A program made the translations under genes and the position numbers. Below, piece after piece: positions 2,218 to 46,950 of a stretch of 64,000 nt of DNA (positions are counted from its first letter, which is position 1; each line of letters starts with the position of its first letter). The DNA comes from a virus, in the IMG/VR virus record IMGVR_UViG_3300043409_001318, positions 1 through 64,000 of that record. The stretch is one strand, 5' to 3'. The notes under the pieces are model-generated. The model was not told the DNA's origin. It was given only the letters and a program-made list of their open reading frames with translations, and did no database searches.

Positions 2218-3585
2218 ATGAAAAATACTATACTTCTTAAAGAAGGCAAAAATTATGCAGAGCTTACACTTCATTTTCCAGAAATGAAGGAACTTCAAAA
2301 ATTAATTGATCCACAAGATTTAGCTCCAAATGGTTTTGAAACTGAACCACATATAACTTTATTATATGGCTTTGATGATAGTGTAGTACCAGAAGATGTA
2401 CAGAAAATATTAGATAAAGTAAAGATATCATCGCTTAAAACAGATAAAATATCTTATTTTCCAGATTTTGGATCTGGAGAACCTTTAAAATTTGATATAA
2501 CTGATCCAGAAATAATGAATTTAAATAAACTATTACAAGCATTACCCCACCCAAGTACAACACACGAATATCGCCCTCATGTTACTATTGCTTACCTTAA
2601 AGCGGGTAGTGCTAAAAAATATGTTGAAGATCCAAGATTTAATTCATTAACGTTTGATTTAAAACCAAAAGAAGCAAAATACTCAAAAAATAAAGTAAAA
2701 ACTAAATTAAATTTAAATGAACAAAATAATACCCTAGTAATGGATAAAATACTTCAAAATTGGGATAAGTTCCTAAATGAGCAAACAGAGCCTTATCAAA
2801 GAAAGATGAAGGCAGGGCATAGTCGTAAAAAGAAAAGAGTTATAGGTCACGGAGGTCAAAAAGCTGGTCCTCCATATACCAAAAAACCTTCTATGGAACG
2901 TTCTAAATCTGCTCCTCCTATGGGAGAGGGTATATTAGATTTCTTTAAAAAAAAAGAAGAACCAATCACTATTCCTCCTTACACAGATTATAATGAAATA
3001 GGAAACACAGGAATATATGTTGGTAGATTTCCTATGGCTAAAGATAGTAAAGAAAATAGAGTATTCCAACCAGATGTATTAAAATTTGATAAAGTATATT
3101 TGGTTGCTGGTGAAGAAGTAGATTTCTTAAATGTAAGACAACCAAATGTTTTGAAAGAAAATGAAGGTAAAATAATTACTGGTAATTTTGATGATACTGC
3201 TACGCCAAAGTTAAACCAACTCCAAGAGATGGAAACTATGGCACAAGATATAGAAAAAGCAGAAGGACAAAAGATATTAGTTGCTTGTAGTGCTGGTAAA
3301 AATCGTTCATCAGCGGTAGCAGCAAGAGCAATAGTATTAAGAGAAGGTGGAATTAAAAGCGATCAAGACTTAGATCATATTGTTAATATGATAAGAAGCG
3401 CAAGAGGTCCAAGTGCCTTAGCTTATACTCACATGCATAAAACAGGTGCTGCAATTGATAAAAACAAACCACCTCAGCATGATGCCTTTATAAACTTTAT
3501 TAAGAATGGTCCATCTGCTCCCCTTGAAGAAGCCCTAAGAAGAGTTATAAGAAGATTGATTAGAGAGCAACATGGAAGAAAATGA
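2218..3585 (+). CDS. Fusion of a 2H phosphoesterase (gp57B/Acb1-like) and a dual-specificity/PTP-like phosphatase
   Basis: Two HxT motifs (PHITLLYG, PHVTIAYL); C-terminal CX5R motif ACSAGKNRS. Confidence 0.75.
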   Translation: MKNTILLKEGKNYAELTLHFPEMKELQKLIDPQDLAPNGFETEPHITLLYGFDDSVVPEDVQKILDKVKISSLKTDKISYFPDFGSGEPLKFDITDPEIMNLNKLLQALPHPSTTHEYRPHVTIAYLKAGSAKKYVEDPRFNSLTFDLKPKEAKYSKNKVKTKLNLNEQNNTLVMDKILQNWDKFLNEQTEPYQRKMKAGHSRKKKRVIGHGGQKAGPPYTKKPSMERSKSAPPMGEGILDFFKKKEEPITIPPYTDYNEIGNTGIYVGRFPMAKDSKENRVFQPDVLKFDKVYLVAGEEVDFLNVRQPNVLKENEGKIITGNFDDTATPKLNQLQEMETMAQDIEKAEGQKILVACSAGKNRSSAVAARAIVLREGGIKSDQDLDHIVNMIRSARGPSALAYTHMHKTGAAIDKNKPPQHDAFINFIKNGPSAPLEEALRRVIRRLIREQHGRK

Positions 3586-3976
3586 TACACCTAATTCAGT
3601 ATTGGTTATAGTTCAAAAAGGCAAAAAAATTCTTGTAGTAGAAAGATCCAAAACAGATGCTTGGATGCCTCTTCATTGGTCTTATCCGGGTGGTCATATT
3701 CAAAAGAATGAAACGCCTTATTATGCTGCGAAAAGAGAACTTGAAGAAGAAACTGGTATTAAAGCAAAGCATGTTGTATATACTGGAATTCGTAATACAG
3801 CTAACGGCAAAATGTATATCTATCTTTGTGATGAATTTGATAATGAAGTAAAATTAAACTTTGAACATTCAGATCACAAATGGATTACTTATGATGAAAT
3901 TGAAGACTTAAACAAGAAAACACCATTTATGAAACAAATTGCTGCTACTGCTCTTGAAATTCCTATGGGATACTAA
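3572..3976 (+). CDS. Nudix hydrolase
   Basis: Nudix box GGHIQKNETPYYAAKRELEEETGI. Confidence 0.9.
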   Translation: MEENDTPNSVLVIVQKGKKILVVERSKTDAWMPLHWSYPGGHIQKNETPYYAAKRELEEETGIKAKHVVYTGIRNTANGKMYIYLCDEFDNEVKLNFEHSDHKWITYDEIEDLNKKTPFMKQIAATALEIPMGY

Positions 3977-5030: not shown

Positions 5031-5033
5031 AAT
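5005..5033 (+). promoter_or_regulatory. sigma70-like promoter for ssb
   Basis: TTGACG-N17-TAGAAT. Confidence 0.6.
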
Positions 5034-5097
5034 AACAATACGGCAGTTGAAGAGATTTGTTCAACTGATCTTAAAACAAACAACAAGGGGTATTAAA

Positions 5098-5889: not shown

Positions 5890-5901
5890 TATACACTAAC
5901 T

Positions 5902-5938
5902 AAGCGGGTATATCTTTCGGGGTATGCCCGCTTTTTTC
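5902..5938 (+). terminator. Rho-independent terminator
   Basis: AAGCGGGTATATC/GGTATGCCCGCTT stem followed by a T-run. Confidence 0.8.
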
Positions 5939-5955
5939 ATAAACAAAGGAACAAA

Positions 5956-8448: not shown

Positions 8449-9398
8449 TGATCGTAGATGGATTAAATATGTTTATACGGGCTTATATAACAAATCCTTC
8501 ATTATCTCCAAACGGACAACCAGTTGGAGGAGTTATTGGAACAATTAATATTATCCAAAAACTTATTAAGCAAACTCAACCAGATCAAATTGTTATTTGT
8601 TGGGATGGTGAGAATGGTTCACAAAAACGTAAAAGTATGAATAAAGATTATAAAGAAGGTCGTAATCCTATTCGTCTTAATCGTGATGTAAGAAACTTAG
8701 ACGAAAACCAAGAAATTGAAAATAGGATTTGGCAGCAAACAAGAATAGCGCAATACTTTAATAATTTTCCTATTATTCAGTTTATGTATCCCAACATTGA
8801 AGCAGATGATTTAATTTCTTATGTTGCTACTCATTCTCATTATAGAGATTGGCAGAAAGTAATTGTATCCTCAGACAAAGATTTTATACAACTTGTTAAT
8901 GATAAAACTATTTTGTTTAGACCAATTCAAGAGCAAATTTTAACTACTAAGAAGATATTAACAGAATTTGGTGTTCATCCAAATAACTTTGCTTTGGCTA
9001 GGGCTGTTTCTGGTGATGCCTCCGACAATCTTAAAGGAGTTGGAGGGGTAGGAATGAAAACTCTTGCCAAGCGTGTTCCAATTCTTCAATCAAGTGAATT
9101 CTGCACGATAGATAAACTTGTTGAGTATTGTGCTAACCAAGATCAAAAGATTAAATGCTTTACCTCAATCGCATCAAACCGTGAGGCGATTAGCGACAAC
9201 TATCGCATCATGCAGTTAGCTTCTCCTCAAGTTTCATATCAAGTTAAAAGTCATATGAATGAAACGTTAGATACTTTTGAACCATTATTAAATCAATTAG
9301 AATATAAAAAAATGTCTATTCAAGATGGATTTGGAACGGTAGATCATACATTACTTATTACAACTATGAAGAGATTTGTGGCAAATGGAACTATATAA
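8436..9398 (+). CDS. 5'-3' exonuclease / flap endonuclease (PolA N-terminal or T4 RNase H-like)
   Basis: IVDGLN, WDG, EADD, SSDKDF, GDASDNLKGVGGVG. Confidence 0.9.
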   Translation: MPRLMIVDGLNMFIRAYITNPSLSPNGQPVGGVIGTINIIQKLIKQTQPDQIVICWDGENGSQKRKSMNKDYKEGRNPIRLNRDVRNLDENQEIENRIWQQTRIAQYFNNFPIIQFMYPNIEADDLISYVATHSHYRDWQKVIVSSDKDFIQLVNDKTILFRPIQEQILTTKKILTEFGVHPNNFALARAVSGDASDNLKGVGGVGMKTLAKRVPILQSSEFCTIDKLVEYCANQDQKIKCFTSIASNREAISDNYRIMQLASPQVSYQVKSHMNETLDTFEPLLNQLEYKKMSIQDGFGTVDHTLLITTMKRFVANGTI

Positions 9399-9401
9399 TG
9401 T

Positions 9402-10694
9402 ATGAACCAAAAATTAATATTAGAGAACTGGCGTAAATTTCTTAAAGAAGAATTAACCACAACACAACCAAGCGTATCAACAGCAAATGTTATTGATAAC
9501 AGTCAACAACAAGAAGAAGAAAAAATAGTAAGTGTCACGGCTGCAATAAATTCTAGTATAGAAACTGCTTTAAAATCACAAGAAGAAGTGATAAAAACAA
9601 TACCTAATAAACAAGCTGTAAAAGATTCTATTAAAAATTTAATAGATAAAATTCAACTAAGAGAAGAAAAGAATAAGAAAAATGCTGATGCCCAGCAACT
9701 TGATGTAAGAAATCCTAATTCAATACTTCCATTAATGAAAAAGTATTCTAAAATGCCTTCTGGTAGTCCCGGCCCAGATCAGATAACAAAGCAAAATTTA
9801 GCAAAAGACGAAACAAAAAAATTAATAGCTTCTTTACCTAGTACAAAAACAAATCCAACGCAAGCATTTATATCTTTGTTTAATATTTTTAATTCAGTTT
9901 TGTCTGAGGAAGATAAAGCTGAGGTTGCACAAGCATTAGAAAGATTACAACAAGCAGCATCCGAAACAACATCACAAGTTAAAGAAAATCTTGGAGTAAA
10001 AGCTTATCTTACGTTCCAAGATACTTTAAGTAAAATTGGAGGTGGTAGCGAAGCAAAAGGTATTGCTAAATTTGGTAACGGAGCTTTGATAATGGCTATA
10101 ACTGCTGGTATATTTTGTTTTATGAACGGTGATGCAGGCACAGCGGGCGGGATAGTAGCAGCAATACCTAAATTAATCTCCTCTTCAAAATCATCTGATA
10201 TACTTGGAATTATAGGTGCTGGTGCTGAAGCAGTTCAAGAAGCAAAGAAATCTAAATCTGGTGACCGCTGCACAAGAATAGCAAAACGTAAATATGATGT
10301 TTGGCCCTCTGCTTATGCTTCTGGAGCCGTTGTAAGGTGTCGTCAAGGAAAGATTTGGAAAGGCGTAAGCGAAAATGCCTCCAATCAAGAAATTGACGAC
10401 GCTTTATTATTAGAAGAAATAGAAGTAATAGAAGAAGCAAAAAAAAAAGCTTATAAACCAAACTTCTCAAAAGAAAAAGAACAAGGTCTTCACGGATGGT
10501 TTGCGAGAAATGATGGAAAAGGTTGGGTAAATTGTAGAACTGGTGGTCCTTGTGGAAGAGATAATGCTGATAAAGGTGGCAAATATCCAGCTTGCAGACC
10601 AACAAAAGCACAATGTAAATCTGCTGGTAAAGGCCCATTAAGAAAAAAGAAATCTTCTTCTCCAATATCGTGGACAAAAAAGAAAAAGGACTAA
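9402..10694 (+). CDS. Multi-module, probably virion-associated protein
   Basis: N-terminal ILENWRKFLKEE; C-terminal basic Cys modules YDVWPSAYASGAVVRCR and GLHGWF...GPCGR...YPACRP; ACTATATA variant at 9390. Confidence 0.65.
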   Translation: MNQKLILENWRKFLKEELTTTQPSVSTANVIDNSQQQEEEKIVSVTAAINSSIETALKSQEEVIKTIPNKQAVKDSIKNLIDKIQLREEKNKKNADAQQLDVRNPNSILPLMKKYSKMPSGSPGPDQITKQNLAKDETKKLIASLPSTKTNPTQAFISLFNIFNSVLSEEDKAEVAQALERLQQAASETTSQVKENLGVKAYLTFQDTLSKIGGGSEAKGIAKFGNGALIMAITAGIFCFMNGDAGTAGGIVAAIPKLISSSKSSDILGIIGAGAEAVQEAKKSKSGDRCTRIAKRKYDVWPSAYASGAVVRCRQGKIWKGVSENASNQEIDDALLLEEIEVIEEAKKKAYKPNFSKEKEQGLHGWFARNDGKGWVNCRTGGPCGRDNADKGGKYPACRPTKAQCKSAGKGPLRKKKSSSPISWTKKKKD

Positions 10695-10697
10695 TTA
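10690..10697 (+). promoter_or_regulatory. ACTAATTA motif (candidate late promoter)
   Basis: Recurrent motif directly before ATG 10702. Confidence 0.5.
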
Positions 10698-10701
10698 TAA
10701 T

Positions 10702-11454
10702 ATGACTAAATTTTCATCATTCAAAGAACAACAATTATTAACAGAAAGTTGGAGAAGATACAATAATATATTGGAAGAACAGGGCGAACCAGTTAAACCA
10801 AGCACTTATAACTCTAATAATAACGAAGATGAAGAAGAAGAAATATCTAAACCAGCGCAAAAAGATTTAAAAGCTTTCCAAGATAGACAACCTCAAATAA
10901 GCAATTTTACTCCACAAATAATATCCCAAAAAATAATTGAATTTTTAAAAACATTAAAAGGATTTGATTTACAAAAAAATAATGCTGTTGTTTTGAACTC
11001 ATTAAGAATACTAACAAATGAATTCACAAATGTATCTTCAAATCAAACAAAAAAACCAGTAGACAAACAAGCAATAAAACAACAATACTCACTACAACCA
11101 GCAAAACCAGCATTAGAAGAATCAATTTATGACAATGCTACATTAGAAGATGGAACTCTTGCTTGCCCTGCTTGCTTGGAGGAGTTACTTGAAAGTGATA
11201 GAACCCTTATTCAAGAAGCTAAATATCAAGGTAAAACCGTTACGCTTAATAAACCAATGAAAGGTGATGTTAAGAAATCAAAAGTTTATGTAAAGAACGG
11301 AAAAGGTAATGTTGTAAAAGTAAACTTTGGCGACAAGAATATGACAATTAAAAAGAATATACCAGCAAGACGTAAATCTTTTAGAGCCAGACATAAGTGT
11401 GATCAAAAGAAAGATAAAACTTCCGCTGGTTACTGGTCTTGTAAAGCTTGGTAG
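10702..11454 (+). CDS. Probably virion-associated protein with C-terminal RRKSFRARHKC...YWSC module
   Basis: Starts MTKFSSFKEQQLLTESWRRY; C-terminal basic Cys module of a type seen in large T4-like phages. Confidence 0.65.
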   Translation: MTKFSSFKEQQLLTESWRRYNNILEEQGEPVKPSTYNSNNNEDEEEEISKPAQKDLKAFQDRQPQISNFTPQIISQKIIEFLKTLKGFDLQKNNAVVLNSLRILTNEFTNVSSNQTKKPVDKQAIKQQYSLQPAKPALEESIYDNATLEDGTLACPACLEELLESDRTLIQEAKYQGKTVTLNKPMKGDVKKSKVYVKNGKGNVVKVNFGDKNMTIKKNIPARRKSFRARHKCDQKKDKTSAGYWSCKAW

Positions 11455-23113: not shown

Positions 23114-23149
23114 GGTTCCTTACTATTTATTTGGTAAGGAACCATTTTT
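23114..23149 (+). terminator. dnaE terminator hairpin overlapping the ACTATTTA motif (23122-23129)
   Basis: GGTTCCTTAC/GTAAGGAACC stem, then ATTTTT. Confidence 0.7.
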
Positions 23150-29602: not shown

Positions 29603-29610
29603 ACTATTTA
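29603..29610 (+). promoter_or_regulatory. ACTATTTA motif (candidate late promoter)
   Basis: Recurrent motif; AGGAG RBS; ATG 29633. Confidence 0.55.
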
Positions 29611-31405: not shown

Positions 31406-31413
31406 ACTATTTA
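31406..31413 (+). promoter_or_regulatory. ACTATTTA motif (candidate late promoter)
   Basis: Immediately before ATG 31419. Confidence 0.5.
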
Positions 31414-31418
31414 TTATC

Positions 31419-32708
31419 ATGAATAATCATAATGAATTAGACCAAATTGTAGAAAGCTTTTTAAGCCCTGCTCCTGTAAAAAAGAGTATGGGTCTTAAAG
31501 AGCTTTTTGCTCTATTTGAAGAAGTTGAAAGATTAAATGAAATACAAATAGGTGGTATGTTCCCAACCACTCCCGCAGACGAAAAACAATACGAAAAAGA
31601 GCCTCAAGCCATAACAGATTTTTATGAAATATTACAAAAAGTTCTTGGAGATGTAATAAACGTATCGTCCGCAGAAAGAGCTGAGACTAAAATAATTAAA
31701 TTAATTGATTATGTTAAACAGTTAAAAACTAAACGTATTAGTGGTGAAGAATTTTCTAAATCATTTGCTACAATTTTATTCGTTACTTCATTACACAAAA
31801 TGATTGAAAATATGTTCCCAGATACTCCATCAGTAGCTGGCTTTTCTTATGAAAAATTTATTTCCTTTGTTTTATCTGGTAATACTTCTATTTCTAACAA
31901 AGAGGATAGACACCCAATTTTTGATGTTTATCTACCCTCAACAAATGAATATTTATCTTTAAAGTTAAAAGCTAGAATAGAATTAGAAGGTTCTATTTCT
32001 AATCTATATAAATTTTTTACAGATACAAAATCTTATACTGTTATAAATCTTAACTCAAATAACGAAATCATTGATAGTGATGGAAAAATTTTAAGTTCTT
32101 CTAAAAAAATTACTTATATTGTTAGTATAAAACAACCAAATGAAGTTCTATATTATTCATATACTTTTGGTTTAAAAGAATTTATAAATATGTTAGGTAA
32201 AGAAAAAATAGAAGATTATAATTATCAAATTGAAAGACCCCAGCTTATTAAAAGGCTCAAAAATGAATATGACAACGCAACAAGAAAAATAATTTCACTT
32301 GAGGCAACAACCCCAATAGATCAAGAAAAAATAAATACGCAAAAAGATTTACAACTTCAAATATTAGGACAAATGAATAGAGTTTCAAAAGAAGGAGCAT
32401 TACAATTTAGATTTGGTTCAACCGTATTAAACAATACCGAAGGTATTGAGAAAATATTAAAAGGTAATATTTTATCAATATCAGCCGAAGATAAAGATAA
32501 AATTGTTGAAAATAATCAAAATATTTTCAATATAAACATTAAAAATATTATCGAACAATCAAATTTAGTATATTATAAAGTAAATAATTTCTTACTTACT
32601 CAAGGTGCAGAAACAGAAGCTAAGGATGCTTATAGTTCTGTTAAAATTTTAGAAACCAGCTTATTGAATTATTTACCTAAGAGAAAAGAAAATATTAAAC
32701 CTTCTTGA
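31419..32708 (+). CDS. Late-type hypothetical protein
   Basis: AT-rich codons; RLNE after an N-terminal leader; follows ACTATTTA. Confidence 0.65.
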   Translation: MNNHNELDQIVESFLSPAPVKKSMGLKELFALFEEVERLNEIQIGGMFPTTPADEKQYEKEPQAITDFYEILQKVLGDVINVSSAERAETKIIKLIDYVKQLKTKRISGEEFSKSFATILFVTSLHKMIENMFPDTPSVAGFSYEKFISFVLSGNTSISNKEDRHPIFDVYLPSTNEYLSLKLKARIELEGSISNLYKFFTDTKSYTVINLNSNNEIIDSDGKILSSSKKITYIVSIKQPNEVLYYSYTFGLKEFINMLGKEKIEDYNYQIERPQLIKRLKNEYDNATRKIISLEATTPIDQEKINTQKDLQLQILGQMNRVSKEGALQFRFGSTVLNNTEGIEKILKGNILSISAEDKDKIVENNQNIFNINIKNIIEQSNLVYYKVNNFLLTQGAETEAKDAYSSVKILETSLLNYLPKRKENIKPS

Positions 32709-32751: not shown

Positions 32752-34320
32752 ATGAGTAAGCAATACTGCGATGGTCGCTCTTTAAGTGAAGCAATCCTAA
32801 AAGGCGCAAATATATTAGCAGATAACGTTTCTTCTACATTAGGACCAAGAGGAAGAACGGTTATTCTACATGAAAAAGGAAAAACACCAATCATTACGAA
32901 AGATGGTGTCACGGTAAGCAATTATGTTGAACTTTCAGATCCATTTGAGAATTTGGGAGCACAAGTAATTAAACAAGCTTCTCAACAAACTGCTACTCTT
33001 GCTGGTGATGGAACAACAACATCAGTCGTTCTTTCACGCGCAATTCTTCGTGAAGCACAGAAATATCTAATTGCTGGTGTTTCTCCTACCGAATTAAAAA
33101 GAGGAATAGATTTAGCCGTTGACGCTTTGGTAATTAGAATTGGAGAAATAGCACAACCAATTTCGTCCGAAGAAGAAATCGAACATATTGCTTCTATCTC
33201 TGCTAATAACGATAGAACAATTGGTAAATTAATTGCTACTGCGGTAGATAAGGTAGGTAAGGATGGTTCTATCACTATTGAAGAAGCACGGTCAGTCGAT
33301 ACTTCTCTTGATATTGTTGAAGGCTTTCGTTTCGATGCGGGATACCTTGCAGGAGCGTTCATCAACGACGAGAGACGAGGGGTAGTAAAATATGAAGACC
33401 CTTATATTCTTGTAACAGATCATAAATTTGACTCCGTTCAAGATATGTTGCCTGTTCTTGAATTAATCGCAAGAGAAGGAAAACCATTTGTAATTGTAGC
33501 AGATGAAATTGAAGGTCAAGCTCTTGCTGCTCTTATTATGAACGCTATGAGAGGCACAATGAAAGTTGCAGCCGTTAAAGCTCCTCGTTATGGTGAAGAG
33601 CGTAAAAACATTCTTAAAGACCTTGCTATTTCAGTAGGAGCAACTTTTGTTTCTCTTGAAAATAGTATGAAGATTGGCGATGTAAAACTCAAAGATTTTG
33701 GTCGTTCAAAGAAAATTGAAATTGCTAAAAACCTTACCACTATCGTAGGTGGAAAAGGTGATATGGAACAAGTTGACCAAAGAATTGAAACAATTAAAGC
33801 TGAACTTCAACAAACTGAATCAATTTACGAGTGTGAACGTCTACAAGAAAGAATTACTCGTCTTGCTTCTGGTATTGCGATTATTCGTGTAGGTGCTCCA
33901 ACTGAAATTGAAATGATTGAGAAGAAGCACCGTATTGAAGATGCCTTAGAAGCCGTCCGTAGTGCCCAACAGGAAGGTATAGTTGCTGGGGGTGGCGTAG
34001 CCCTCCTTAGAGCAGCAGAAGGGATTGTAGACCCAACAGGGAACGAAGAACAAGCACTTGGTTTCAAGATCATAATGAAGGCTATTGAAGAGCCTGTAAG
34101 ACAAATGGCCCTAAATTCTGGTGAGTCGCCAGACATTATTATTAGTATGATTAAAACAGAACATTCTAATTTTGGTTATGATTTCTTGGGTCGTTCTATG
34201 ATTAATATGGTTGAGAAGGGCATTATTGATCCAGCAAAGGTTACAAGATGTGCTCTTCAAAATGCAGCTTCAGCAGCAGGAACTCTAATCACAACTAACT
34301 ATGCTATTGTCCAAATTTGA
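32752..34320 (+). CDS. groEL: Chaperonin GroEL
   Basis: TLGPRG, ITKDGVTV, AGDGTTT, GGGVALLR, IIDPAKV; no GGM tail. Confidence 0.97.
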   Translation: MSKQYCDGRSLSEAILKGANILADNVSSTLGPRGRTVILHEKGKTPIITKDGVTVSNYVELSDPFENLGAQVIKQASQQTATLAGDGTTTSVVLSRAILREAQKYLIAGVSPTELKRGIDLAVDALVIRIGEIAQPISSEEEIEHIASISANNDRTIGKLIATAVDKVGKDGSITIEEARSVDTSLDIVEGFRFDAGYLAGAFINDERRGVVKYEDPYILVTDHKFDSVQDMLPVLELIAREGKPFVIVADEIEGQALAALIMNAMRGTMKVAAVKAPRYGEERKNILKDLAISVGATFVSLENSMKIGDVKLKDFGRSKKIEIAKNLTTIVGGKGDMEQVDQRIETIKAELQQTESIYECERLQERITRLASGIAIIRVGAPTEIEMIEKKHRIEDALEAVRSAQQEGIVAGGGVALLRAAEGIVDPTGNEEQALGFKIIMKAIEEPVRQMALNSGESPDIIISMIKTEHSNFGYDFLGRSMINMVEKGIIDPAKVTRCALQNAASAAGTLITTNYAIVQI

Positions 34321-37517: not shown

Positions 37518-37525
37518 ACTAATTA
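37518..37525 (+). promoter_or_regulatory. ACTAATTA motif (candidate late promoter)
   Basis: Lies after the terminator and before the 37546-46950 operon. Confidence 0.55.
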
Positions 37526-37545: not shown

Positions 37546-40500
37546 ATGTCAAACTTTAATAATCTTTGGAATAACTGGTATAGTACAAAAGTTTTAACTG
37601 AGATGAAGAAGAGAACAAGAGATAGAGTTGTAGCAATATCTAAAAAAATAAAAGAAGAAGCTGGATTAGAAGGACTTAATGATAGTTATACAAGAATGGC
37701 AGCTTTTCCAGAGATATTTGGTGATAAATTAAGAATAGTTGTTGAATCTCAAGATAGTGAACTTGTAATTATGTCTAAATATCTTGGCAGTCTTCAACAA
37801 TTAGTTGCCGCCAGTTTAAAAGATAAAAAAGAAAAGGGTTTTTTAAAACCACCTTACTTTGGAAGTTCTTTTATTACCGATCAAACAATTGCTAAAGAAA
37901 CTAAAAGAAGATTACAAGAAGATGGTGGTGGAACATACGAAATTGACGTTGTATATTACCAACCAACTTTAATAATTCAATATGTTAACATGCAAGAACA
38001 ACAAAAGAAAGAAATTTTTTCTCTTCTTAAAGCGTTTAACAAATTTAAAATGAAAGAAGCAGCAGATTATTGGGGTAAAATTCAATCTAAATATACAAAA
38101 GATAAAGATTTTATAAATAATTTAACAACACAATGGTTTGCAATTAATAAAAGCGATCAAGAACGAAAAATGAAATACGGAGGTGAAAGAAAAGCTATTG
38201 TTTATTCCCGTGCTCCTATTGACGTTTTAAGAATGTCTGACCATCCCATGATTTCTTCTTGTCACTCCCAAGGTGGAGGTTACTTTCAATGCGCTGTTCA
38301 AGAAGCGATTAGAGGAGGTGCTATTGCTTATTCAGTTAATCAAGAAGACATACAAAAAATTATTGATGAAGATAGATTACAAGACATAGAAATATTTGAA
38401 GATAATGAAAGAGGGGTAAAAGGTATTAATCCAGATGGTAGAATTAGAATTAGAAGAATGTTTGATACTGATACCAAACAAGAGTATGCCTTACCAGAGA
38501 TAAGAATATACGGTACTCCACCTGCTTCTTTCCAAAATAGTGTTTTAAGTTGGTCAGCAGAAAATCAAAAATCTAAATTTACAAATTTAGAAACTGGTGA
38601 ATTTCAATTACCAGAGATTAAAAATGCTATAAGAGTTGGTGGTTCTTATGAAGATAATTACGCACCAGATCTTTATAATAGATTAGCTAAGAAAGTTGCT
38701 AATTCTTTTGGAATTAAAGATGAAGATGTTCCAAATTCCAATGTTTATATTCAAAGTGTCACCGTTGATGAAGGCTTGGATTTAATGAGTAATTGCGAAA
38801 GAATTTCAAGAAATATACGAAACGAAATGGTAACTTTTGATATGACAAGACTAGCAGATTATAAAATTATATGTAAAAATAATGGTAAGACAGGTATCGC
38901 ATTTACAAGAGAAGGTCGTACAGAAGAATTTAATGATGAATTCAATGATGAATTTGTTGCGATAGAATTTAATTTCAAATATGAAATACATCAAAATAAT
39001 ATTAAAGGAAAACTTAAAACTGAATTAAACAACGATATAATAAAACAAATAATTAATAAAGGTGGTGAGATATCACCGGATTTTTATTTCTATAAATTAT
39101 ATAAATTACTAAATTTAGAAGGAACAGAATTCAAACCACGCAGAAACGGTCCACACTTGGTTTTTGAAGCAGATGCAAATTTAACCTTTAAAACCGTAGA
39201 AGAATTACGAACATTAAAAAATGAAATATTTAATTACGATAATGATGATAATAATTATCGTAATTTTGAAAGAACTGGTATAGCATTAGATTTTATAGAA
39301 ATGCAGCCATTTGACACAGCATACGCTAAACGTTTATTTAGAGATGTAAAAAATAGTGATTATATGTTCTATTATGAGAGTTCTTATGGTTCTTATAATG
39401 GTTCTACGGTATTATTGGCTCCACCAAGCGAATCTTCACGATCTGAAAGAACAAAAGCATATGATCGTGGTAATCTTAAACAAACAGATATGTTCCCTAC
39501 AATATATAATGGTTTTCTTGAAGGTATAGTGGAATATTTTTATGTTTATTCAATTCCAAAAGAAGCTTTAAGAGCTTCTTTAAAATATCCTACAAAAGAA
39601 AGACACCCAGATGGAGTAGTTTATCGCGCTTTGAAAATAGAGGCTAATCGAAAGAAAGAAGAAATAATGAGAGATATTCAAAAAGTTGTTTATGATATGC
39701 CAGACAAAATTATTAATAGTTTTGGTAGATTAGCACAATCAATTATAGAATTTGGCCCAACGGTAAGAAACCCAGAAGTTATAATCAACAATGAAACTGG
39801 TGAAGCTGATATTGAGAGAGATATTCAAATTGCCTTTACCCTTAAAATAAATCTTTCCACAAGCCTTAGTTCTGATCAACAAGAACAAGCTTTAAAACTT
39901 GTTGAATATTTTTACAATAACTTTTATAAATTTAGAGACAATTTAGAAGAACAATTAATTAATGATCTAAAACAAAAGGGTAGTCAGTTAGTAAAAAGTC
40001 TTATGTCCGATGCTTATCTCAAAGGTATAAAGGGTGAAAAACCTTTAGCAGACCCAATAGCAGAGATAAGACAATTAGACATACCAAACATAATGAAACA
40101 ATTAGAACAACCAGTTATCCAACAAGCAAGAGAAAGTTGGGAAAATTCAAATGGGATAACTACTGATTTAAAAGTTCCTTTTTTTGCTACGACTACAGAC
40201 GAACAAATGATAAGAGTTTATTATTCTTCTACCACTAACTACAAAAAAGTAAATCCATTAGAAGAAAACCTTTTTTATCTGGATTTTAAAATAGAGTATT
40301 TTAAATCAGGTACTAGCACTTATTTAATGATTAAATGTCCTATGATATTTCAACATACTTCTATAAGTGATATGAATGTTCAAGCTCTAACTATGGAAGA
40401 AATAATAGCTGATTTAGCATCGTCTATAGTGACTACTAATTATCGTGCTAAGGCTTCTAAAACAACTTACCAAGAACAAGAAAAGTATTTAGCTGGTAAA

Positions 40501-40704
40501 GAAAGCCAGATGGTATTTGATATAAGTAAGGAAACAAAAGAATTAATACAAACAAGACAAAAAGCAAAGGCAACAAAGGCAGATAAAGATGCGGCTATTG
40601 CTGCAACCACAGAAGACGAAAAACAAATGAAAATGTTTGAACGTAAGATGAATAAGAAACTAATTAAGGAAAGACTTATTAAGTGGTATAAAAGGAATTC
40701 ATAA
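37546..40704 (+). CDS. Large uncharacterised protein, paralogue 1 (SRAPIDVLRMSD-SCHS-YFxCA core)
   Basis: 1052 aa; core shared with the next two ORFs. Confidence 0.8.
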   Translation: MSNFNNLWNNWYSTKVLTEMKKRTRDRVVAISKKIKEEAGLEGLNDSYTRMAAFPEIFGDKLRIVVESQDSELVIMSKYLGSLQQLVAASLKDKKEKGFLKPPYFGSSFITDQTIAKETKRRLQEDGGGTYEIDVVYYQPTLIIQYVNMQEQQKKEIFSLLKAFNKFKMKEAADYWGKIQSKYTKDKDFINNLTTQWFAINKSDQERKMKYGGERKAIVYSRAPIDVLRMSDHPMISSCHSQGGGYFQCAVQEAIRGGAIAYSVNQEDIQKIIDEDRLQDIEIFEDNERGVKGINPDGRIRIRRMFDTDTKQEYALPEIRIYGTPPASFQNSVLSWSAENQKSKFTNLETGEFQLPEIKNAIRVGGSYEDNYAPDLYNRLAKKVANSFGIKDEDVPNSNVYIQSVTVDEGLDLMSNCERISRNIRNEMVTFDMTRLADYKIICKNNGKTGIAFTREGRTEEFNDEFNDEFVAIEFNFKYEIHQNNIKGKLKTELNNDIIKQIINKGGEISPDFYFYKLYKLLNLEGTEFKPRRNGPHLVFEADANLTFKTVEELRTLKNEIFNYDNDDNNYRNFERTGIALDFIEMQPFDTAYAKRLFRDVKNSDYMFYYESSYGSYNGSTVLLAPPSESSRSERTKAYDRGNLKQTDMFPTIYNGFLEGIVEYFYVYSIPKEALRASLKYPTKERHPDGVVYRALKIEANRKKEEIMRDIQKVVYDMPDKIINSFGRLAQSIIEFGPTVRNPEVIINNETGEADIERDIQIAFTLKINLSTSLSSDQQEQALKLVEYFYNNFYKFRDNLEEQLINDLKQKGSQLVKSLMSDAYLKGIKGEKPLADPIAEIRQLDIPNIMKQLEQPVIQQARESWENSNGITTDLKVPFFATTTDEQMIRVYYSSTTNYKKVNPLEENLFYLDFKIEYFKSGTSTYLMIKCPMIFQHTSISDMNVQALTMEEIIADLASSIVTTNYRAKASKTTYQEQEKYLAGKESQMVFDISKETKELIQTRQKAKATKADKDAAIAATTEDEKQMKMFERKMNKKLIKERLIKWYKRNS

Positions 40705-43283
40705 TGAACGATAAAAAAGATTACCAAGTATTATGGGAAGGCTTTATTTCCAATAAAAAAATGTTATTGAATGAAATGGAAGGGCAGTATATGAATTTAA
40801 TTTCTAATGCTACTGCCTATGCCGAAAGCCACCCAGAATTACTACCATTCAAAGAAGTGTTTGGTAATGATTTAAGAAAAGTTATTCCATTCCAACAAAA
40901 GAATGTAGATAAAATTGCTTATCTTTTAAGTATATTTAAATTATTTTCAAGAACAACAGAAGGGAAGCAATATTTAGTACCACAAGTTCAACCAACCACC
41001 GTAAAAGTTAAAAGACAACGCCAAGGTGGTGGTGAAACTTACGAACAAGAACAAACCTTAAATCAACTTGTAGCGGTACATACCTTTATAGATCAAATGG
41101 GTAATTCAAAAACAAGAAATTTGACGATTGTTAATAGTCTAAAATTATTAAATGGTGCTTATAAAAAGTATTTAGAAAAGTCAAATCAAGATCCAAATTC
41201 TGTAAATGTCTCCCAATTTACTATATTAAAAGTATTAGATACTATACCAAGAATGATAGATTGGTGGCAGAAAAATCAATCAAAAATTAATCAAGATCCA
41301 GAAATAGCACAATTATCAAAAGATCTTTCTGACGATATGAGCCAAGAAGCTTGGAAAATGTTTGATACGATTGATGAAAATGAAGGTGCTGGCGAGATAA
41401 CTTCTAAATATTCTATTGTTCTTTCAAGAGTTCCTGTTGATGTGTTAAGAATGTCGGACCATGAAGGGATTAGTTCATGCCATTCTCAACCAAAGAACTA
41501 TGGATCAAATGGATACTTTTATTGTGCTATAGCAGAAGCACAAAATCAAGGTGCTATTGCTTATGTTGTTAATACAGAAGATTTGGAGAATATAGATTTA
41601 AAATCAAAGGAAATCTTTGTAGACCGTGAAAGATCAATAGGAGGAATTAGACCATTATCTCGTATTCGTCTTAGAACTTTAAAAGATACTTCCACAGATC
41701 AAACTATTGCTGTTCCAGAACAAAAGATATATGGTTTATTAATTAATGGTTTTCAAGAATTTATAGATAAATATACGGCTCAATCTCAAAAAGAAATGTT
41801 TGTAGAGCAAGACGAAGATGGAACAAAACAATTAAAACTTCCAATACAAAGAAATCTTACTTATGTTGGTGGTTCTTGGCAAGATAGTCAAATAGGTAGA
41901 AACTTTAAAAGAATGTTAGATTATATAACTGGTTTAGGTGAAGTTAAACCAACCGAAGAACAAAAATTATTGATTAATGATTTTGCTGCGATAAGTGTTA
42001 GATACTCTGGAAATGATACTCAATACGAAGATGATGATGAAGATTATGATGAAGACAATAATGATGAAGACGATCAAAGAGAAGCAGCAGAACAAGAATA
42101 TTACGATCAAATAAGACGAGGAGCTTTTAATACAGATAATTCTTTTATATTTAGAAGTTCTAATTTTAATTGGGTTTGGGGTGAGGGAGTTGAACTAAAA
42201 CTTGTAGCATATACAAAAATTCCAATAGAAACATCTTCATTAAGTAAGAAATATTTTGTTAACGGAGAAGTAGATACAGAAACATTATGTAGTGATATTT
42301 TATCCGCAATAGTAGATAAAGCAGATAAATCTGAAGTAAAAGTTCAACTTGATTACCCAGACGTTGCTATTGATGAAAGTGAAACATATATACAAGGCGA
42401 TAAAGATGATAAATATTTAACACTTAATTTATTTTATATTGAAGATGATATATCAGATATAGGAACATTTGGTTCTCACATATCGGACTTTATCCAATTT
42501 TATAATTCAATAGATAGTTTAGAAGATATATTAAAAGTCTATTTAATAGATAATGGTATTATTAGTGATGGAACATTTAGTATAAGTCAAAGAATAGCAA
42601 ACTTAAAAAATTCTTTTGATCGTGATAAACAAAGAAACTTTACTTATATTGGTGGTGATAAATTTGAGTTTCGTCCTATAACTAATACACAACTTGTTGA
42701 TAGTTCTAAAACTGGAGTATTGTTAACAAAAATTAATGTAGAAGATTATAGAGATATTCGTCATAATTTTGATAGTAGTTTTAATGAAGATATAGTAAGA
42801 TCTTTTGTTAGGGAACAAGAGAAAACACTATCAAGTGCCTATAATAGTTTACAACGAAATTTATTCGATAATATACCAGCTAATTATTTATCTGAATTTA
42901 CAGAACAGGAAAAATTTTCTTTCCTTGGTATTACTGGTGCTTTTAGTGTTGAACTTAAATTTGTTTATATGACCGAAGATATGAAAACAGCAATAGTAAT
43001 GAAAGATAGCGAAGAAGCTAAAATAGTTGGTATTTATGCGGTTCCTGTTATAACAATTGATAGTAAGAAATCACCAGAAGCATTATTGGGACTTATAAAT
43101 TATATGTATATGGTTGATGAAGACCCAGAACAATTTATAGATTTATTATACCTCTCATTTAAGATAGCAGCAAGTCAATATTCTGATCTTAATAATGCTA
43201 TTTCTAAATTGACTGAAAGAAGAAAAAGAGTTATTAAAGAAAGGCTGAAGAATTGGTATAGAAAGAATAAAGGAATTATTTAA
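40704..43283 (+). CDS. Large uncharacterised protein, paralogue 2
   Basis: 859 aa; SRVPVDVLRMSDHEGISSCHS...YFYCA. Confidence 0.8.
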   Translation: MNDKKDYQVLWEGFISNKKMLLNEMEGQYMNLISNATAYAESHPELLPFKEVFGNDLRKVIPFQQKNVDKIAYLLSIFKLFSRTTEGKQYLVPQVQPTTVKVKRQRQGGGETYEQEQTLNQLVAVHTFIDQMGNSKTRNLTIVNSLKLLNGAYKKYLEKSNQDPNSVNVSQFTILKVLDTIPRMIDWWQKNQSKINQDPEIAQLSKDLSDDMSQEAWKMFDTIDENEGAGEITSKYSIVLSRVPVDVLRMSDHEGISSCHSQPKNYGSNGYFYCAIAEAQNQGAIAYVVNTEDLENIDLKSKEIFVDRERSIGGIRPLSRIRLRTLKDTSTDQTIAVPEQKIYGLLINGFQEFIDKYTAQSQKEMFVEQDEDGTKQLKLPIQRNLTYVGGSWQDSQIGRNFKRMLDYITGLGEVKPTEEQKLLINDFAAISVRYSGNDTQYEDDDEDYDEDNNDEDDQREAAEQEYYDQIRRGAFNTDNSFIFRSSNFNWVWGEGVELKLVAYTKIPIETSSLSKKYFVNGEVDTETLCSDILSAIVDKADKSEVKVQLDYPDVAIDESETYIQGDKDDKYLTLNLFYIEDDISDIGTFGSHISDFIQFYNSIDSLEDILKVYLIDNGIISDGTFSISQRIANLKNSFDRDKQRNFTYIGGDKFEFRPITNTQLVDSSKTGVLLTKINVEDYRDIRHNFDSSFNEDIVRSFVREQEKTLSSAYNSLQRNLFDNIPANYLSEFTEQEKFSFLGITGAFSVELKFVYMTEDMKTAIVMKDSEEAKIVGIYAVPVITIDSKKSPEALLGLINYMYMVDEDPEQFIDLLYLSFKIAASQYSDLNNAISKLTERRKRVIKERLKNWYRKNKGII

Positions 43284-46108
43284 TGTCGAAGAACACTCAT
43301 CATTATAACTGGAATTTGTGGTCAAGCAAGAACAAAAAGTTAACAGAAAGAAAGAAAGTTTTGTTAAAAGAGATGGACGAGCAGTTTATTGATATGATAG
43401 AACCAGCTATTATTGCTGCTGGTTCGGGAGCAAATAAAAACTTTGCTCCTTATTTTAATAACAAGAATAGACTTGTAATTAATTATGATGAATCAAAAGT
43501 TAATTATATTGCTACATTAGGCGCATTATGTAGTAATTACATTAAAGAAACAATAGCAAGACAATCCAAATCTTATCAAGCTACTGATGTTTATAAACAA
43601 GATAGACAACAAGTAGATGATATATTAGCAAAAGTAAGAGAGGATGATCCCCACTCTCATTACAGAGAAGAAAGGTTATTTGGTTATGTGAGATATCCAG
43701 TATTAGATTCTATTAACTTTAATATATCACAAAAAGAAACTATACAAACTGGTGTGGGCGTTGGTGGTGTTGGAACAATAGAGAAAAAAATAACTATATA
43801 TGAACCTGTTCTTGAATATAAAGTCACTAAACCAATATTAATTGGAAGTGAAAAGTATTCAGATCTAAATAGACAAAGCACTACTACTTTTGTTTCTACT
43901 TTTGGAGAAATTCTTAACAGGAATAAAGAAAAAGAATTGTTTAATGAATGGAATGGAGCAAAAGGTATAAGTTCACTTAGAGAAAGTATTTGTCAAGATG
44001 GTGAGGTTGTTAAACAAGCTAAAAAAGAATTTCTTAAAATAAATGAAAGTACAGAAACTTTAAAATTATCATTAAGTAAAAGTTTAGAAGCAAAAGCAAG
44101 TGAATATTCTATTGTTATTTCAAGAGCACCTATCGATGTTTTAAGAATGTCCGACTTTGTTGGTATGGAGTCATGCCATTCTACTGGTCGTGAATATTTT
44201 TATTGTGCTCTTGCTGAATCAAGAAATCAAGGGGCTGTTGCTTATCTTGTAAAGACAGAAGATCTTAAAAAAGTAAATCTAAATGATGAAGAAATATTTA
44301 ATGACCGTCAAAGAAGGGTAGGAGGTATAAATCCAATATCAAGAGTTAGACTTAGAAGAATTTATGATGAAGCATTGAAAAGCGATTATATGGTTGTAGA
44401 AGACGCAATTTATGGTTCCAGAAAAGCTTTCTTTGTTGATACAATAAAAAAATGGGCTTCAAATATTCAAAAAGATGTGTTTGCTTTGGGAAACACACCA
44501 GAAGATATTTATATTCCAGATCCAGATGATATAACTTTAAAGGGTGGAAGTTATACTGACTTGGACCAAAGTGGTTTAGCAAAAGAAATAAGAGATATTA
44601 TTTCTAATTCTATTAAATTAAAATTTGGAAATGAGGTATTAGAACAATATAAAACACAAATTGAATCAATTCGATATATTCAATATACAGGTCAAGAAAA
44701 TGAAAATGAATTAAGTACAGATTGTAGTGATGCTGAAAACCTTAAAGATAGTTGGGAAGACACGGTAAGTAGAGTAGGATATGTTAGTAGTGTTGCGTTT
44801 GATGTAATTTGTAATGGTAGTGGTTTAGATCGTATAGAAATGAATATTGAATTAGAAAGTATTGTAATTGGTAATGGTGAAGAATATAATAATAAGAAAC
44901 GTCGTTTTAATATGACGAAAGTAAAAGAATTATTACAAGGTGGTCATTACCATACTTCATATAGAACCGATGCGATGTTAACAGAAAAGTTGGAAAAATA
45001 CTTTAATAAAATTCCTCACTTTAAAGATCTGGTAGGATATGATGTTGAAGGAAATGTTGTTATAAGTGATGATAGAATAGAGTATACAATAAAATTTATA
45101 GGTAATTATCCAACCTCAAGTGAAGCAGAATATTTATCCGGTAGATTTTATAATGTATTAAAGAAATATGATCTTTATGAATTTGAAGAAGTTTGTTTAG
45201 AATTTGCTGAAGAAATGGGATTGCTTGAAGACCAACCATTTGATATAGCAAACGAATATTCCTTAGAAAAATTTGCTGAAGATCTTTTTAAATCAAGAAA
45301 TCATTTTAGATATAATGAAGGAGAAAGTGAAGAAGGTACAAAAGACGTATATTCTTTAATGGGAAATCCAGAAGGACAAGGACCATCTACAAACAATTCT
45401 CCAATAATAGGAATTATTCCATTTGAATATGAACTTAGAGAGAAGTTTATGGAACTATTCCAATATGGCTCTACTAACTTTCAAGTTTCTTTTAGAAATA
45501 AATTTAGTAATAAAATGTATAAATTAAATTCTTCTGTTGATGAACTTGCTTTACCAAGAGAATATAGTAGTAGACAATATCAAATTCCTATGGGTAAACA
45601 AGGAGACTACGGAAAAGCACTAAGAGCCGTAGCACCATCAGCAAGGATGCCGGATGATGAAAGCTTAAGCATTGTTTTAACTGCTGGAGAAGAAAATACA
45701 TTCCAACAAGCACGAAATACAAAACAAATTGAAGTTAAATTATTGTTAGACATACACATAAATGAAGAAATGCAGTCCGAAAACGAAATTATGAGTACCA
45801 TGAACTTTATGGATATATATGGTGGCGAGAAGTATGATGAACTTATAGGCTTAGCCACAGAAGCATTTAAAGAAGCTTGGAAACAATTTGGATTTGAGAT
45901 GGATAGACTTATTTCTAAATTAAGTGAACCAAAACAAAAGAAACCAGATGATTTTTCTTCATTAGAAGCTGGTGTTCAAACAGGTAATCTTCCGCTTTAT
46001 ACTATGAAGTCTGTTGAACAACCAGAAGATAAGAACGAAGCAAAGAAGAATAAGAAACTACTTATTAATGAAAGATTTAAGCGTTTGCTAAGGAACATGA
46101 AAAAATGA
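43283..46108 (+). CDS. Large uncharacterised protein, paralogue 3
   Basis: 941 aa; SRAPIDVLRMSDFVGMESCHS...YFYCA. Confidence 0.8.
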   Translation: MSKNTHHYNWNLWSSKNKKLTERKKVLLKEMDEQFIDMIEPAIIAAGSGANKNFAPYFNNKNRLVINYDESKVNYIATLGALCSNYIKETIARQSKSYQATDVYKQDRQQVDDILAKVREDDPHSHYREERLFGYVRYPVLDSINFNISQKETIQTGVGVGGVGTIEKKITIYEPVLEYKVTKPILIGSEKYSDLNRQSTTTFVSTFGEILNRNKEKELFNEWNGAKGISSLRESICQDGEVVKQAKKEFLKINESTETLKLSLSKSLEAKASEYSIVISRAPIDVLRMSDFVGMESCHSTGREYFYCALAESRNQGAVAYLVKTEDLKKVNLNDEEIFNDRQRRVGGINPISRVRLRRIYDEALKSDYMVVEDAIYGSRKAFFVDTIKKWASNIQKDVFALGNTPEDIYIPDPDDITLKGGSYTDLDQSGLAKEIRDIISNSIKLKFGNEVLEQYKTQIESIRYIQYTGQENENELSTDCSDAENLKDSWEDTVSRVGYVSSVAFDVICNGSGLDRIEMNIELESIVIGNGEEYNNKKRRFNMTKVKELLQGGHYHTSYRTDAMLTEKLEKYFNKIPHFKDLVGYDVEGNVVISDDRIEYTIKFIGNYPTSSEAEYLSGRFYNVLKKYDLYEFEEVCLEFAEEMGLLEDQPFDIANEYSLEKFAEDLFKSRNHFRYNEGESEEGTKDVYSLMGNPEGQGPSTNNSPIIGIIPFEYELREKFMELFQYGSTNFQVSFRNKFSNKMYKLNSSVDELALPREYSSRQYQIPMGKQGDYGKALRAVAPSARMPDDESLSIVLTAGEENTFQQARNTKQIEVKLLLDIHINEEMQSENEIMSTMNFMDIYGGEKYDELIGLATEAFKEAWKQFGFEMDRLISKLSEPKQKKPDDFSSLEAGVQTGNLPLYTMKSVEQPEDKNEAKKNKKLLINERFKRLLRNMKK

Positions 46109-46950
46109 TAATGGAAAGCATATTAAATAATTGGAAAGGCTTTCTCAAAGAAGGCTTTACAGAAGAAGGAACCCCAGACCTTAAATACTATGCTTTCGAT
46201 TGGGATGATAATATAGCCTTTATGCCTACCAAAATTATTCTTCTTGATACAGAGGGTAATGAAGTAGGGATGGCTACCGATCATTTTGCGGAGTATAGAA
46301 CAGAGATAGGTAAGAAAGAGTTTGAATATGAGGGGCACACAATAAAAGACTTTGCTCCATTCCCATTTAGAAATTTTAGAGTTGAAGGTGATACTCAATT
46401 CTTACAAGACGTTATGACTGCTAAATTAGGACCATCATTTCCAGACTTTAAAGAATGTGTTGAAGGTGCTTCTATATTTGCTATAATTACAGCAAGAGGT
46501 CATAATCCAGAAACTCTTAAAGAAGCTTGTAAAAAGTATATTCTTTCTGGTTATGGTGGAATTAATACAGAACAAGTTATATCAAATATTAAAAAATATA
46601 ATGAATTGTATAAATCTTCTGGCTCAACAGATAATTCTAAATTAGTAGATGATTATTTACAAATTTGTAAATTTCATCCTGTAACGTTTGGAGAAGGAAG
46701 CGCAGCAAACCCAGAGCAATTAAAAGTAGTTGCTTTAAATAACTTTATTCAATATGTTAATACAGAAGTAAAGAAAGTTAAAAAACACGCTCAAAAAGGT
46801 TCTAAAATTAAAATAGGTTTCTCCGACGATGATTTCAAGAATATTGAAGCGATGATATCTCACTTTGGGTCAAGAGACGAAAAAGGTAAATTTAAAGCTG
46901 GACGACCACAATCATTAAAGATAAAGTATACAGGCAAACCCCGTGGATAA
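46105..46950 (+). CDS. HAD-superfamily phosphatase-like protein
   Basis: Motif I FDWDD, motif II ITARG, motif IV GFSDDD. Confidence 0.75.
   Translation: MIMESILNNWKGFLKEGFTEEGTPDLKYYAFDWDDNIAFMPTKIILLDTEGNEVGMATDHFAEYRTEIGKKEFEYEGHTIKDFAPFPFRNFRVEGDTQFLQDVMTAKLGPSFPDFKECVEGASIFAIITARGHNPETLKEACKKYILSGYGGINTEQVISNIKKYNELYKSSGSTDNSKLVDDYLQICKFHPVTFGEGSAANPEQLKVVALNNFIQYVNTEVKKVKKHAQKGSKIKIGFSDDDFKNIEAMISHFGSRDEKGKFKAGRPQSLKIKYTGKPRG

Follow-up and report, generated by a model that had tools for sequence, protein, structure and literature searches.

Short N-terminal leaders on mostly unrelated proteins of an uncultured far-T4 phage are candidate capsid-targeting propeptides

Why do proteins that have little else in common, encoded far apart in one phage genome, begin with the same short peptide? 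The question is raised by a stretch of 64,000 nucleotides (the window; positions 1 to 64,000 of IMG/VR virus record IMGVR_UViG_3300043409_001318), which is the first 64 kb of a 184,352-bp virus contig with a G+C content of approximately 34% and nearly all of its genes on the plus strand. An earlier note on this DNA had listed similar N-terminal leaders ending in (L/I)xE on unrelated late proteins, five of which also shared a basic C-terminal helix, and had proposed a two-ended address code that packages enzymes into the phage head for injection. The quoted peptides are all present at the positions given for them. Our analysis partly confirms this observation and partly supports its interpretation. 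We found two distinct classes of leader, A and B, and we put at roughly 55% the probability that, by analogy to phage T4, they are capsid-targeting propeptides removed after a glutamate by the prohead protease.

Profiles built from the clearest copies of the leaders were run against the full 184-kb genome in six frames. The class A leader reads M-x-x-(L/I)(L/F)-E-N-W-x-x-(F/Y)(L/I)-x-E (profile consensus x-L-L-E-N-W-K-x-F-L-K-E). Its N, W and E are invariant, and (L/I)-x-E is present in seven of seven members. The seven class A genes, three of them in the window, scored 20.7-24.0 bits; the next best match in the six frames scored 6.5. The class B leader reads (I/L)TExx(L/I)(R/K)Q(I/V)I(K/R)EE(I/L) (profile consensus x-T-E-x-x-L-R-Q-I-I-x-E-E-I), with I-(K/R/Q)-E in five of seven members and another hydrophobic-x-E approximately six residues further on. 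There are seven class B genes, one of them in the window, at 25.9-31.2 bits, and the next best match scored 8.6. Enrichment of the motifs over background, in the full genome and in relatives, had been named as a check on the idea, and the 14 strong members were separated from the best non-member by a gap of 14-17 bits. In all 14, a Met precedes the profile match by 1-4 residues (2-4 in class A). When the 24 N-terminal residues encoded by each gene were clustered without supervision, the same set emerged, with 67 pairs over threshold compared to 15 in internal-window controls. On 122 kb of control DNA from T4 and Microcystis phage Mel-JY01, the two profiles reached at most 9.1 bits, and the matches were unrelated open reading frames (ORFs). 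As the earlier note had maintained, no recognizable replication enzyme in the window contains a class A or class B match.

The class A genes start at 9402, at 46105 (probably at the ATG at 46111) and at an internal ATG at 2740 in the window, and at 72363, 73655, 74924 and 75791 in the genome. The class B genes start at 23153 in the window and at 77000, 78638, 147539, 154705, 155122 and 156293 in the genome. Within the window, where all of these features are on the plus strand, the leader MNQKLILENWRKFLKE (9402-9449; 20.7 bits) begins a 430-residue protein (9402-10694), MESILNNWKGFLKE (46111-46152; 22.8 bits) begins a predicted HAD/Pnkp-like phosphatase (46105-46950), MDKILQNWDKFLNE (2740-2781; 21.7 bits) lies inside ORF 2218-3585, and the class B leader MRITEAQLRKIIRQKIQE (23153-23206; 25.9 bits) begins a 183-residue protein (23153-23704). 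When the 14 proteins were compared by BLAST with their leaders removed, clear similarity was found only between 74924 and 75791 (34% identity, 1.6e-39), and 23153 and 156293 were marginally similar (E 0.004). At the level of sequence comparison it therefore holds that the carriers are mostly unrelated, with approximately six independent protein bodies in class A and approximately six in class B. Profile matches thus bear out the claim of shared leaders on unrelated proteins for 9402, 46105, 2740 and 23153; other proteins that had been listed with them either are paralogs of one another (37546, 40704 and 43283) or have N-termini that do not rise above background (10702 and 29633). Class A leaders are on larger proteins scattered over the genome. 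Class B leaders are mainly on small proteins encoded around the prohead protease gene, and three of these genes (154705, 155122 and 156293) are directly downstream of it.

The leaders are conserved in relatives. We sampled the surroundings of homologous protease genes (61-96% identity) in IMG/VR, 80 loci in all, and found 82 class B matches of at least 12 bits in 43 of them. All of these were on the coding strand, and in 62 a Met was exactly two residues upstream. The carriers are approximately 70-350 residues long and are encoded at several positions around the head module. Variants of class A, such as METIFENWSKFLDE, MKKLFENWRKHLNE and MKLIMENWNRYLTE, also occur in these 80 loci. Codons within the leaders vary synonymously (Leu as TTA, CTT, CTA or CTC; Glu as GAA or GAG; Asn as AAC or AAT; also the Phe/Tyr codons), and the flanking DNA is unconserved, which shows selection on the leaders at the level of the peptide. 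In each of four complete related genomes (189-204 kb), the number of class A genes is 3-7 and that of class B genes 1-6; a fifth, more distant complete genome (G004; 211 kb) contains no class A or class B genes. We considered the idea that each lineage of the protease has a leader of its own. We rejected it because G004, in which the S77-family prohead protease and ClpP are both present, has no enrichment of shared N-termini (30 pairs compared to 27).

The genome encodes the head machinery that such a system would use. Outside the window are genes for the large terminase, a T4-type portal (Portal_T4 PF07230, 256.8 bits), a prohead protease, a gp23-type major capsid protein (Gp23 PF07068, 244.8 bits), sheath, tube and baseplate, and the order of the head genes is as in Mel-JY01 and T4. 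The search for a prohead protease, another check that had been proposed, found a gp21-type enzyme at 154097-154690 of the genome (Peptidase_S77 PF03420, 97.8 bits against a cut-off of 27; phrog_207, 2.1e-53). Its catalytic His and Ser align with His85 and Ser140 of T4 gp21. A candidate scaffold gene, assigned from position and composition alone, starts at 165639 and adjoins the capsid gene. The best full-length match of the capsid protein among cultured phages was Mel-JY01 (36.6% identity), and the identity to Rhodothermus phage RM378 was 33.5%. The T4 gp23 maturation site FLTE/AEIGG aligns with LLRE/SNS in the capsid protein here and with LISE/ANR in Mel-JY01. A megablast search of 20 kb against phages gave no match, and the strong leaders were not found in Mel-JY01. 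Judging from these genes, the phage is an uncultured, T4-type far-T4 myovirus that is distant from cultured phages. The head module also contains a gene for ribosomal protein S21 (157275-157562 of the genome, L002:12275-12562; phrog_21469, 3.3e-8), and an annotated RpsU is encoded at the syntenic position behind the prohead protease in Mel-JY01.

We also analyzed the motif that precedes the leader genes. ACTA[TA]TTA occurs in 48 copies on the plus strand and 11 on the minus strand genome-wide, and ACTATTTA is the commonest of the 280 permutations of its own letters. Most copies are intergenic, 1-40 nt upstream of start codons, and they head baseplate, tail, tube, scaffold-candidate and head genes, and also the 19051/Pol III alpha operon. 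As had been claimed, each of the listed genes is directly or operonically behind this motif or its variant ACTATATA. The variant is at 9390-9397, upstream of 9402, and the 8-mer ACTAATTA at 37518-37525 on the plus strand, a motif of the late-promoter type, heads the operon from 37546 to 46950. The class B gene at 23153 has ACTATTTA at 23122-23129, and other copies of the motif start at 1820, 10690 and 29603. The motif is directly at 5 of 13 strong leader genes compared to 29 of 212, a modest enrichment (Fisher p = 0.03), and promoter, short spacer and leader frequently occur together. At 9390-9402, 10690-10702 and 31406-31419 in the window, and at 73642, 74911, 80368, 81952 and 174928 in the genome, the motif (ACTA[TA]TTA or ACTATATA) is only 4-5 nt before the ATG. 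If ACTA[TA]TTA is a -10-like late promoter, then mRNAs with this spacing would be leaderless or nearly so.

To our knowledge, the capsid-targeting sequence (CTS) of T4 is the only well-studied route by which a tailed phage addresses foreign proteins to the interior of its head. It was reportedly described for the internal proteins IPI, IPII and IPIII by Mullaney and Black in 1996, and it is in use as a delivery tool. Like the propeptides of Alt, gp22, gp24 and gp21, it is taken off by the gp21 prohead protease behind (L/I)-x-Glu. In T4 IPIII, 10 N-terminal residues are enough for packaging; gp21 cleaves after L/I-x-E, Alt is processed at both ends, and CTS-like sequences are on other basic proteins of T-even phages (PMC9026906). 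In the T4 sequence (NC_000866), the N-termini in question are MKTYQEFIAE followed by A in IPII and IPIII, MLKEQLIAE followed by A in gp22, MAKINELLRE followed by S in gp24, MELITELFDE followed by D in Alt, and MNEPQLLIE followed by T in gp21. The system described here resembles that of T4 in several ways: a short N-terminal peptide starting M-K/x and ending in (L/I)-x-E is on unrelated proteins; the S77 protease is homologous and retains the catalytic His and Ser; (L/I)xE is at the gp23 maturation site; the leader genes, like ipI-III and alt, are scattered outside the main structural clusters; and some of the carriers are enzymes, as Alt is. It differs in having two leader classes of 14-20 residues rather than one of 10, and approximately 14 carriers, including 100-kDa proteins and phosphatases, rather than three or four; the carriers here are known from sequence alone.

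Propeptide-processed inner-body or ejection proteins are also found in phages phiKZ, 201phi2-1 and SPN3US, in which the proteases (gp175/gp245) are diverged homologs of gp21 (PMC5694885, PMC7411985). The points of likeness are that a gp21-family protease cuts many head-internal proteins of these giant phages after Glu and that their heads contain large proteins belonging to paralog families. In contrast, their sites are (S/A/G)-x-E or A-x-E, and their propeptides are long with no shared short leader. The phage analyzed here has a much closer homolog of gp21 and T4-type head genes. Encapsulins offer another comparison: a short terminal peptide sends unrelated enzymes into a shell of the HK97 fold. 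These cargo-loading peptides mostly sit at the C-terminus, undergo no cleavage and attach directly to the shell protein, and the analogy to the leaders is one of addressing only, with no homology implied. The leader peptide strings gave no match in the literature searched.

These comparisons suggest how the leaders might act. The leader genes would be transcribed together with structural genes from ACTA[TA]TTA promoters. The short amphipathic N-terminal leader would bind to the scaffolding core while the prohead assembles, and the protein behind it would thereby become part of that core. The gp21-type serine protease would then cut after the terminal Glu of (L/I)-x-E and free the mature protein within the head, where it would remain until it leaves with the DNA at infection. 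Each of these steps, from core binding through cutting at the Glu and presence in the virion to injection, is inferred. The clustering of class B genes around the S77 gene, together with a leader that ends in (L/I)xE at a fixed position, was counted in favor of capsid targeting, and the small class B carriers encoded around the protease gene are likely to be core or internal proteins.

Several points weigh against capsid targeting. The profiles found no similarity to the T4 CTS MKTYQEFIAE: across 80 kb of T4 DNA, with ipI-III and the genes for gp22, gp24 and Alt, they did not exceed 9.1 bits, and the likeness is one of form only. In this AT-rich proteome, 43% of random 30-residue windows and 55% of N-termini contain a [LIVF]xE by itself, so that ending in LxE carries weight only where the position of the Glu is fixed. 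The class A and class B genes in the window sit amid genes for replication and nucleotide metabolism, and an A-like protein encoded outside the window is a DEDDh exonuclease, in the PHROGs class of polymerase exonuclease subunits. No gp55-like late sigma factor was recognized, and a candidate had no PHROG match; that ACTA[TA]TTA acts late is suggested by its position alone. The S77 protease and ClpP are encoded in all five of the complete related genomes, including G004. Because G004 has the protease and no shared leader, the protease does not imply the leader system. Cpn60, on the other hand, is encoded in exactly the four leader-bearing genomes of the five and is absent from G004, which makes another partner possible.

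The predicted phosphatase at 46105 bears on whether the leaders are removed at all. An AlphaFold model of this protein had a mean predicted local distance difference test score (pLDDT) of 86.7 and a predicted template modeling score of 0.84; residues 1-14, which are the leader, had pLDDT below 50, and the leader is modeled as an unpacked appendage outside the HAD fold. The best fold match was the T4 Pnkp 3'-phosphatase (Z 11.0, root-mean-square deviation 3.1, 132 residues), followed by 1ltq (Z 10.0) and many HAD entries. No variation was seen at D30, D32, T127 and D239-D241 in the family alignment, and these residues fit the HAD motifs, with DxDx(T/V/N) as motif I and the others as later ones. 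There was no Pfam match, and Foldseek by itself was weak. Fold and motifs together predict a HAD-superfamily phosphatase. The family comprises 5070 proteins without a Pfam domain, and 46105 itself matched uncultured huge phages only. The core of the family starts (L/I)-x-E-G-(F/I)-x-x-E-G-T-P-D-x-K-Y-Y-A-F-D-W-D-D-N. A full class A leader precedes the Glu of the core in the closest members; more distant members have approximately seven basic residues only (MKRQLKE before GF, MSLRRRLRE before GF), with the position of (L/I)xE unchanged. Homologs with such short leaders (MKxQLKE; L105-L108) are encoded between the tail sheath and the tube/baseplate genes on myovirus contigs of 185-219 kb, and this family appears, from its gene neighborhoods, to be one of late, structural-module genes. 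A tail-module site is unusual for the gene of an enzyme.

The leaders might instead be permanent helices that are never cleaved, serving in oligomerization, in nucleic-acid or membrane association or in another part of the virion, with a structural role for the Glu. The models show the leaders as amphipathic helices, E-G-(F/I) is kept in the 46105 family even with a seven-residue leader, so that the Glu could belong to the mature protein, and the homologs with short leaders are in tail modules. Against this, the leader of 46105 is not packed on the fold, the same leader is on unrelated folds, and the leaders resemble the T4 propeptides in where they sit, how long they are and how they end. We consider it unlikely that the leaders are permanent.

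A partner other than the prohead could be Cpn60 (229 bits; window 32752-34320), the ClpP-family protease (112 bits; window 30709-31404) or the pair of a DUF2201 metallopeptidase/VWA protein and an AAA protein, with the leaders as docking helices for folding, turnover or intracellular assembly. The confinement of Cpn60 to leader-bearing genomes fits docking, as does the location of several leader genes amid replication genes, and the DUF2201 metallopeptidase/VWA gene is just upstream of the class A cluster. The Cpn60 distribution comes from only five genomes and is confounded by phylogeny, G004 being the most distant, and ClpP is in all five. The position-fixed Glu after L/I matches the S77 rule, and class B genes cluster at the S77 gene and not at those for Cpn60 or ClpP. 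We know of no linear N-terminal tag for GroEL-type chaperonins. Docking on such a partner seems somewhat less probable to us than permanence of the leaders.

One of the class A leaders is inside ORF 2218-3585 (plus strand). This ORF encodes a 2H/LigT-like phosphoesterase (residues 9-136; PF13563, 29.5 bits), the class A leader MDKILQNWDKFLNE and a putative phosphatase resembling dual-specificity (DSP) and protein tyrosine (PTP) phosphatases. The phosphatase half has the CX5R sequence CSAGKNR and a match to phrog_10650 (1.8e-8); the DSPc (22.3 bits) and Y_phosphatase (20.0 bits) matches of the C-terminal half were both under the Pfam cut-offs, and the PTP matches in the PDB were weak (E 0.03-0.2). 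In all four relatives that have the gene, M-D-K-I-L-Q-(N/S)-W comes right after a stop codon, and only residues 174-455 are covered by the match. Because this stop precedes the leader Met, the leader-phosphatase was ancestrally a stand-alone protein with the leader as its N-terminus, and one such stand-alone gene (L086) has ACTATTTA just upstream. The internal leader is thus real, and its internal position is the product of a later fusion; as the sequences are read, a 2H/LigT-type module was joined in frame upstream of the leader-phosphatase in the genome analyzed here. A Nudix gene (3572-3976; PF00293, 75 bits) overlaps the 3' end of the ORF. The peptide PSMERSKSAPP(M/A)GE occurs both in ORF 2218 (residues 224-240, window 2887-2937) and at the C-terminus of L100:1199-3775, a distant homolog, on another phage contig, of the three giant proteins described next.

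The operon that ends with 46105 begins with three large genes on the plus strand: 37546-40704 (1052 residues; N-terminus LWNNWYSTKVLTE followed by M, C-terminus KKLIKERLIKWYKRNS), 40704-43283 (859 residues; VLWEGFISNKKMLLNE followed by M, and VIKERLKNWYRK) and 43283-46108 (941 residues; WNLW...VLLKE followed by M, and LINERFKRLLRN). They are paralogs, with 30-33% identity over approximately 400 residues (E 1e-35 to 1e-41), and their shared N- and C-termini are therefore inherited rather than a tag on unrelated proteins. In diverse phage contigs, the homologs all start with a brief aromatic, amphipathic segment and then (L/I/V)-x-E; MKHLLESWRSYERKVLTEE, MLLLKEYIRKFLNEI and MNLLEIFIRELLKEI are examples. 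The Glu of this motif is invariant in 15 of 15 family members (23-61% identity) and is among approximately 28 invariant columns; the basic C-terminal helix is retained in closer relatives only. The core (SRAPIDVLRMSDH..SSCHS..YFxCA..) had no Pfam, PHROG or tblastn match. Its model had a pLDDT of 69.6, the best PDB match (Z 5.5, GNAT-like) was within noise, and the matches in BFVD were to uncharacterized jumbo-phage proteins only (Dickeya JA29, Agrobacterium Atu_ph07).

Duplications of this kind (the giant trio, and 74924 and 75791), and the frequent movement of promoter, spacer and leader as a unit, would also be expected if the shared termini had arisen through gene shuffling, as a 5' cassette that moves with exchanged or duplicated genes and has no role in targeting. 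The synonymous codon differences within the leaders and the unconserved flanking DNA argue otherwise, and the leaders persist in relatives in which the protease is only 62-66% identical. Such an origin, or its variant in which a modifying enzyme recognizes the leader as a tag, is in our view improbable. A radical-SAM enzyme as the reader of such a tag was rejected, since there was no PF04055 match in the genome and positive controls worked. Chance in a proteome rich in K, E, L, I and N is refuted for the 14 strong members by the bit-score gap, the N-terminal position of every member, the controls and the conservation in relatives, and we give it next to no weight overall; given how common [LIVF]xE is, chance does stand for the N-terminus of 29633 and possibly for that of 10702, which are inseparable from background.

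Neither of these two N-termini was retrieved by either leader profile in the genome-wide six-frame scan. The 250-residue protein at 10702-11454 (plus strand) has a loosely A-like N-terminus, LLTESWRRYNNILEE, with ACTAATTA at 10690-10697, and it groups with the leader genes only when the threshold is loose enough to let in false links as well. The 198-residue protein at 29633-30229 (plus strand), with ACTATTTA at 29603-29610, is very acidic (36% D+E minus its N-terminus), and its proposed leader was not significant. A class A profile broadened with variants from relatives, aimed at 10702, 79355, 80381 and the giant trio, suffered from poor extraction of seeds; it was weaker and retrieved none of them.

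The second half of the proposed address code was not supported. Five proteins had been described as sharing a basic C-terminal helix. Two of these, ORF 2218 (LEEALRRVIRRLIRE, 3523-3567 on the plus strand, kept in orthologs L084-L087) and 29633 (INEVLKRVIRRLV, 30188-30226), do share [KR][KR]VI[KR][KR]L at the extreme C-terminus; the other three are the paralog trio. Beyond these two proteins, a scan of 1.29 million residues turned up the motif in orthologs of 2218 only. A C-terminal motif on two independent proteins and one paralog family is weak ground for a two-ended code. We also rejected the idea that this helix is a relocated class B core: LRRVIRRL and LRQVIRKII look alike by eye, and a profile of 58 core sequences gave 0.8 bits for 29633 and nothing for 2218. 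A likeness of class A to the propeptide helix of gp23 (T4 LLNKWKPLLEG compared to LLKKWEKTGLLEG) is likewise apparent by eye; the capsid N-terminus was not among the top matches of the class A profile, and the likeness was kept as an idea only.

What would be delivered? An enzyme cargo was part of the original proposal. As a general claim it is weakly supported: only two carriers could be given an enzymatic fold, in both cases that of a phosphatase. They are 46105, with its HAD fold, and ORF 2218, with its CX5R sequence and weak DSP/PTP matches. The 9402 protein had no Pfam, PHROG or atlas assignment, its atlas scores being under the stated noise level. The atlas look-up for 23153 was also under the noise level, and no function could be assigned to it, or to 10702, 29633 or the giant trio by Pfam, PHROG and fold look-ups. 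A tentative extension of capsid targeting, which we hold to be doubtful, is a code with two channels. Class B would direct small core or internal proteins, and class A, together with the divergent form on the giant paralogs, would direct an injected kit for processing nucleic-acid ends in RNA/DNA repair or anti-defense. The kit, proposed with the same reserve, would comprise the Pnkp-like 3'-phosphatase, the PTP-type phosphatase fused to 2H, a nucleotidyltransferase-like protein and possibly the DEDDh exonuclease. If there are two such channels, the in-frame fusion of 2H upstream of the internal leader would be a natural case of cargo carried within a propeptide, and if the cargo consists of end-healing enzymes, it could act in counter-defense ahead of any phage gene expression.

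If the leaders are capsid-targeting propeptides, the principle of addressing proteins to the head would be general and evolvable, extending to a far-T4 lineage that is abundant in metagenomes, with two different leaders, longer than that of T4, on at least a dozen unrelated proteins. The leaders could then serve as sequence-based predictors of the proteins that an uncultured phage injects and as new orthogonal packaging tags.

Two further groups of proteins were seen near the end of the window. An N-terminal CCHC zinc-knuckle-like motif, C-x2-C-G-x3-H-N-x3-C, is common to four proteins (window 59603, 60289 and 61528; genome 64666). The region from 47 to 63 kb encodes an expanded family of small SH3-like proteins that start with (F/Y)xIGD(I/L)V.

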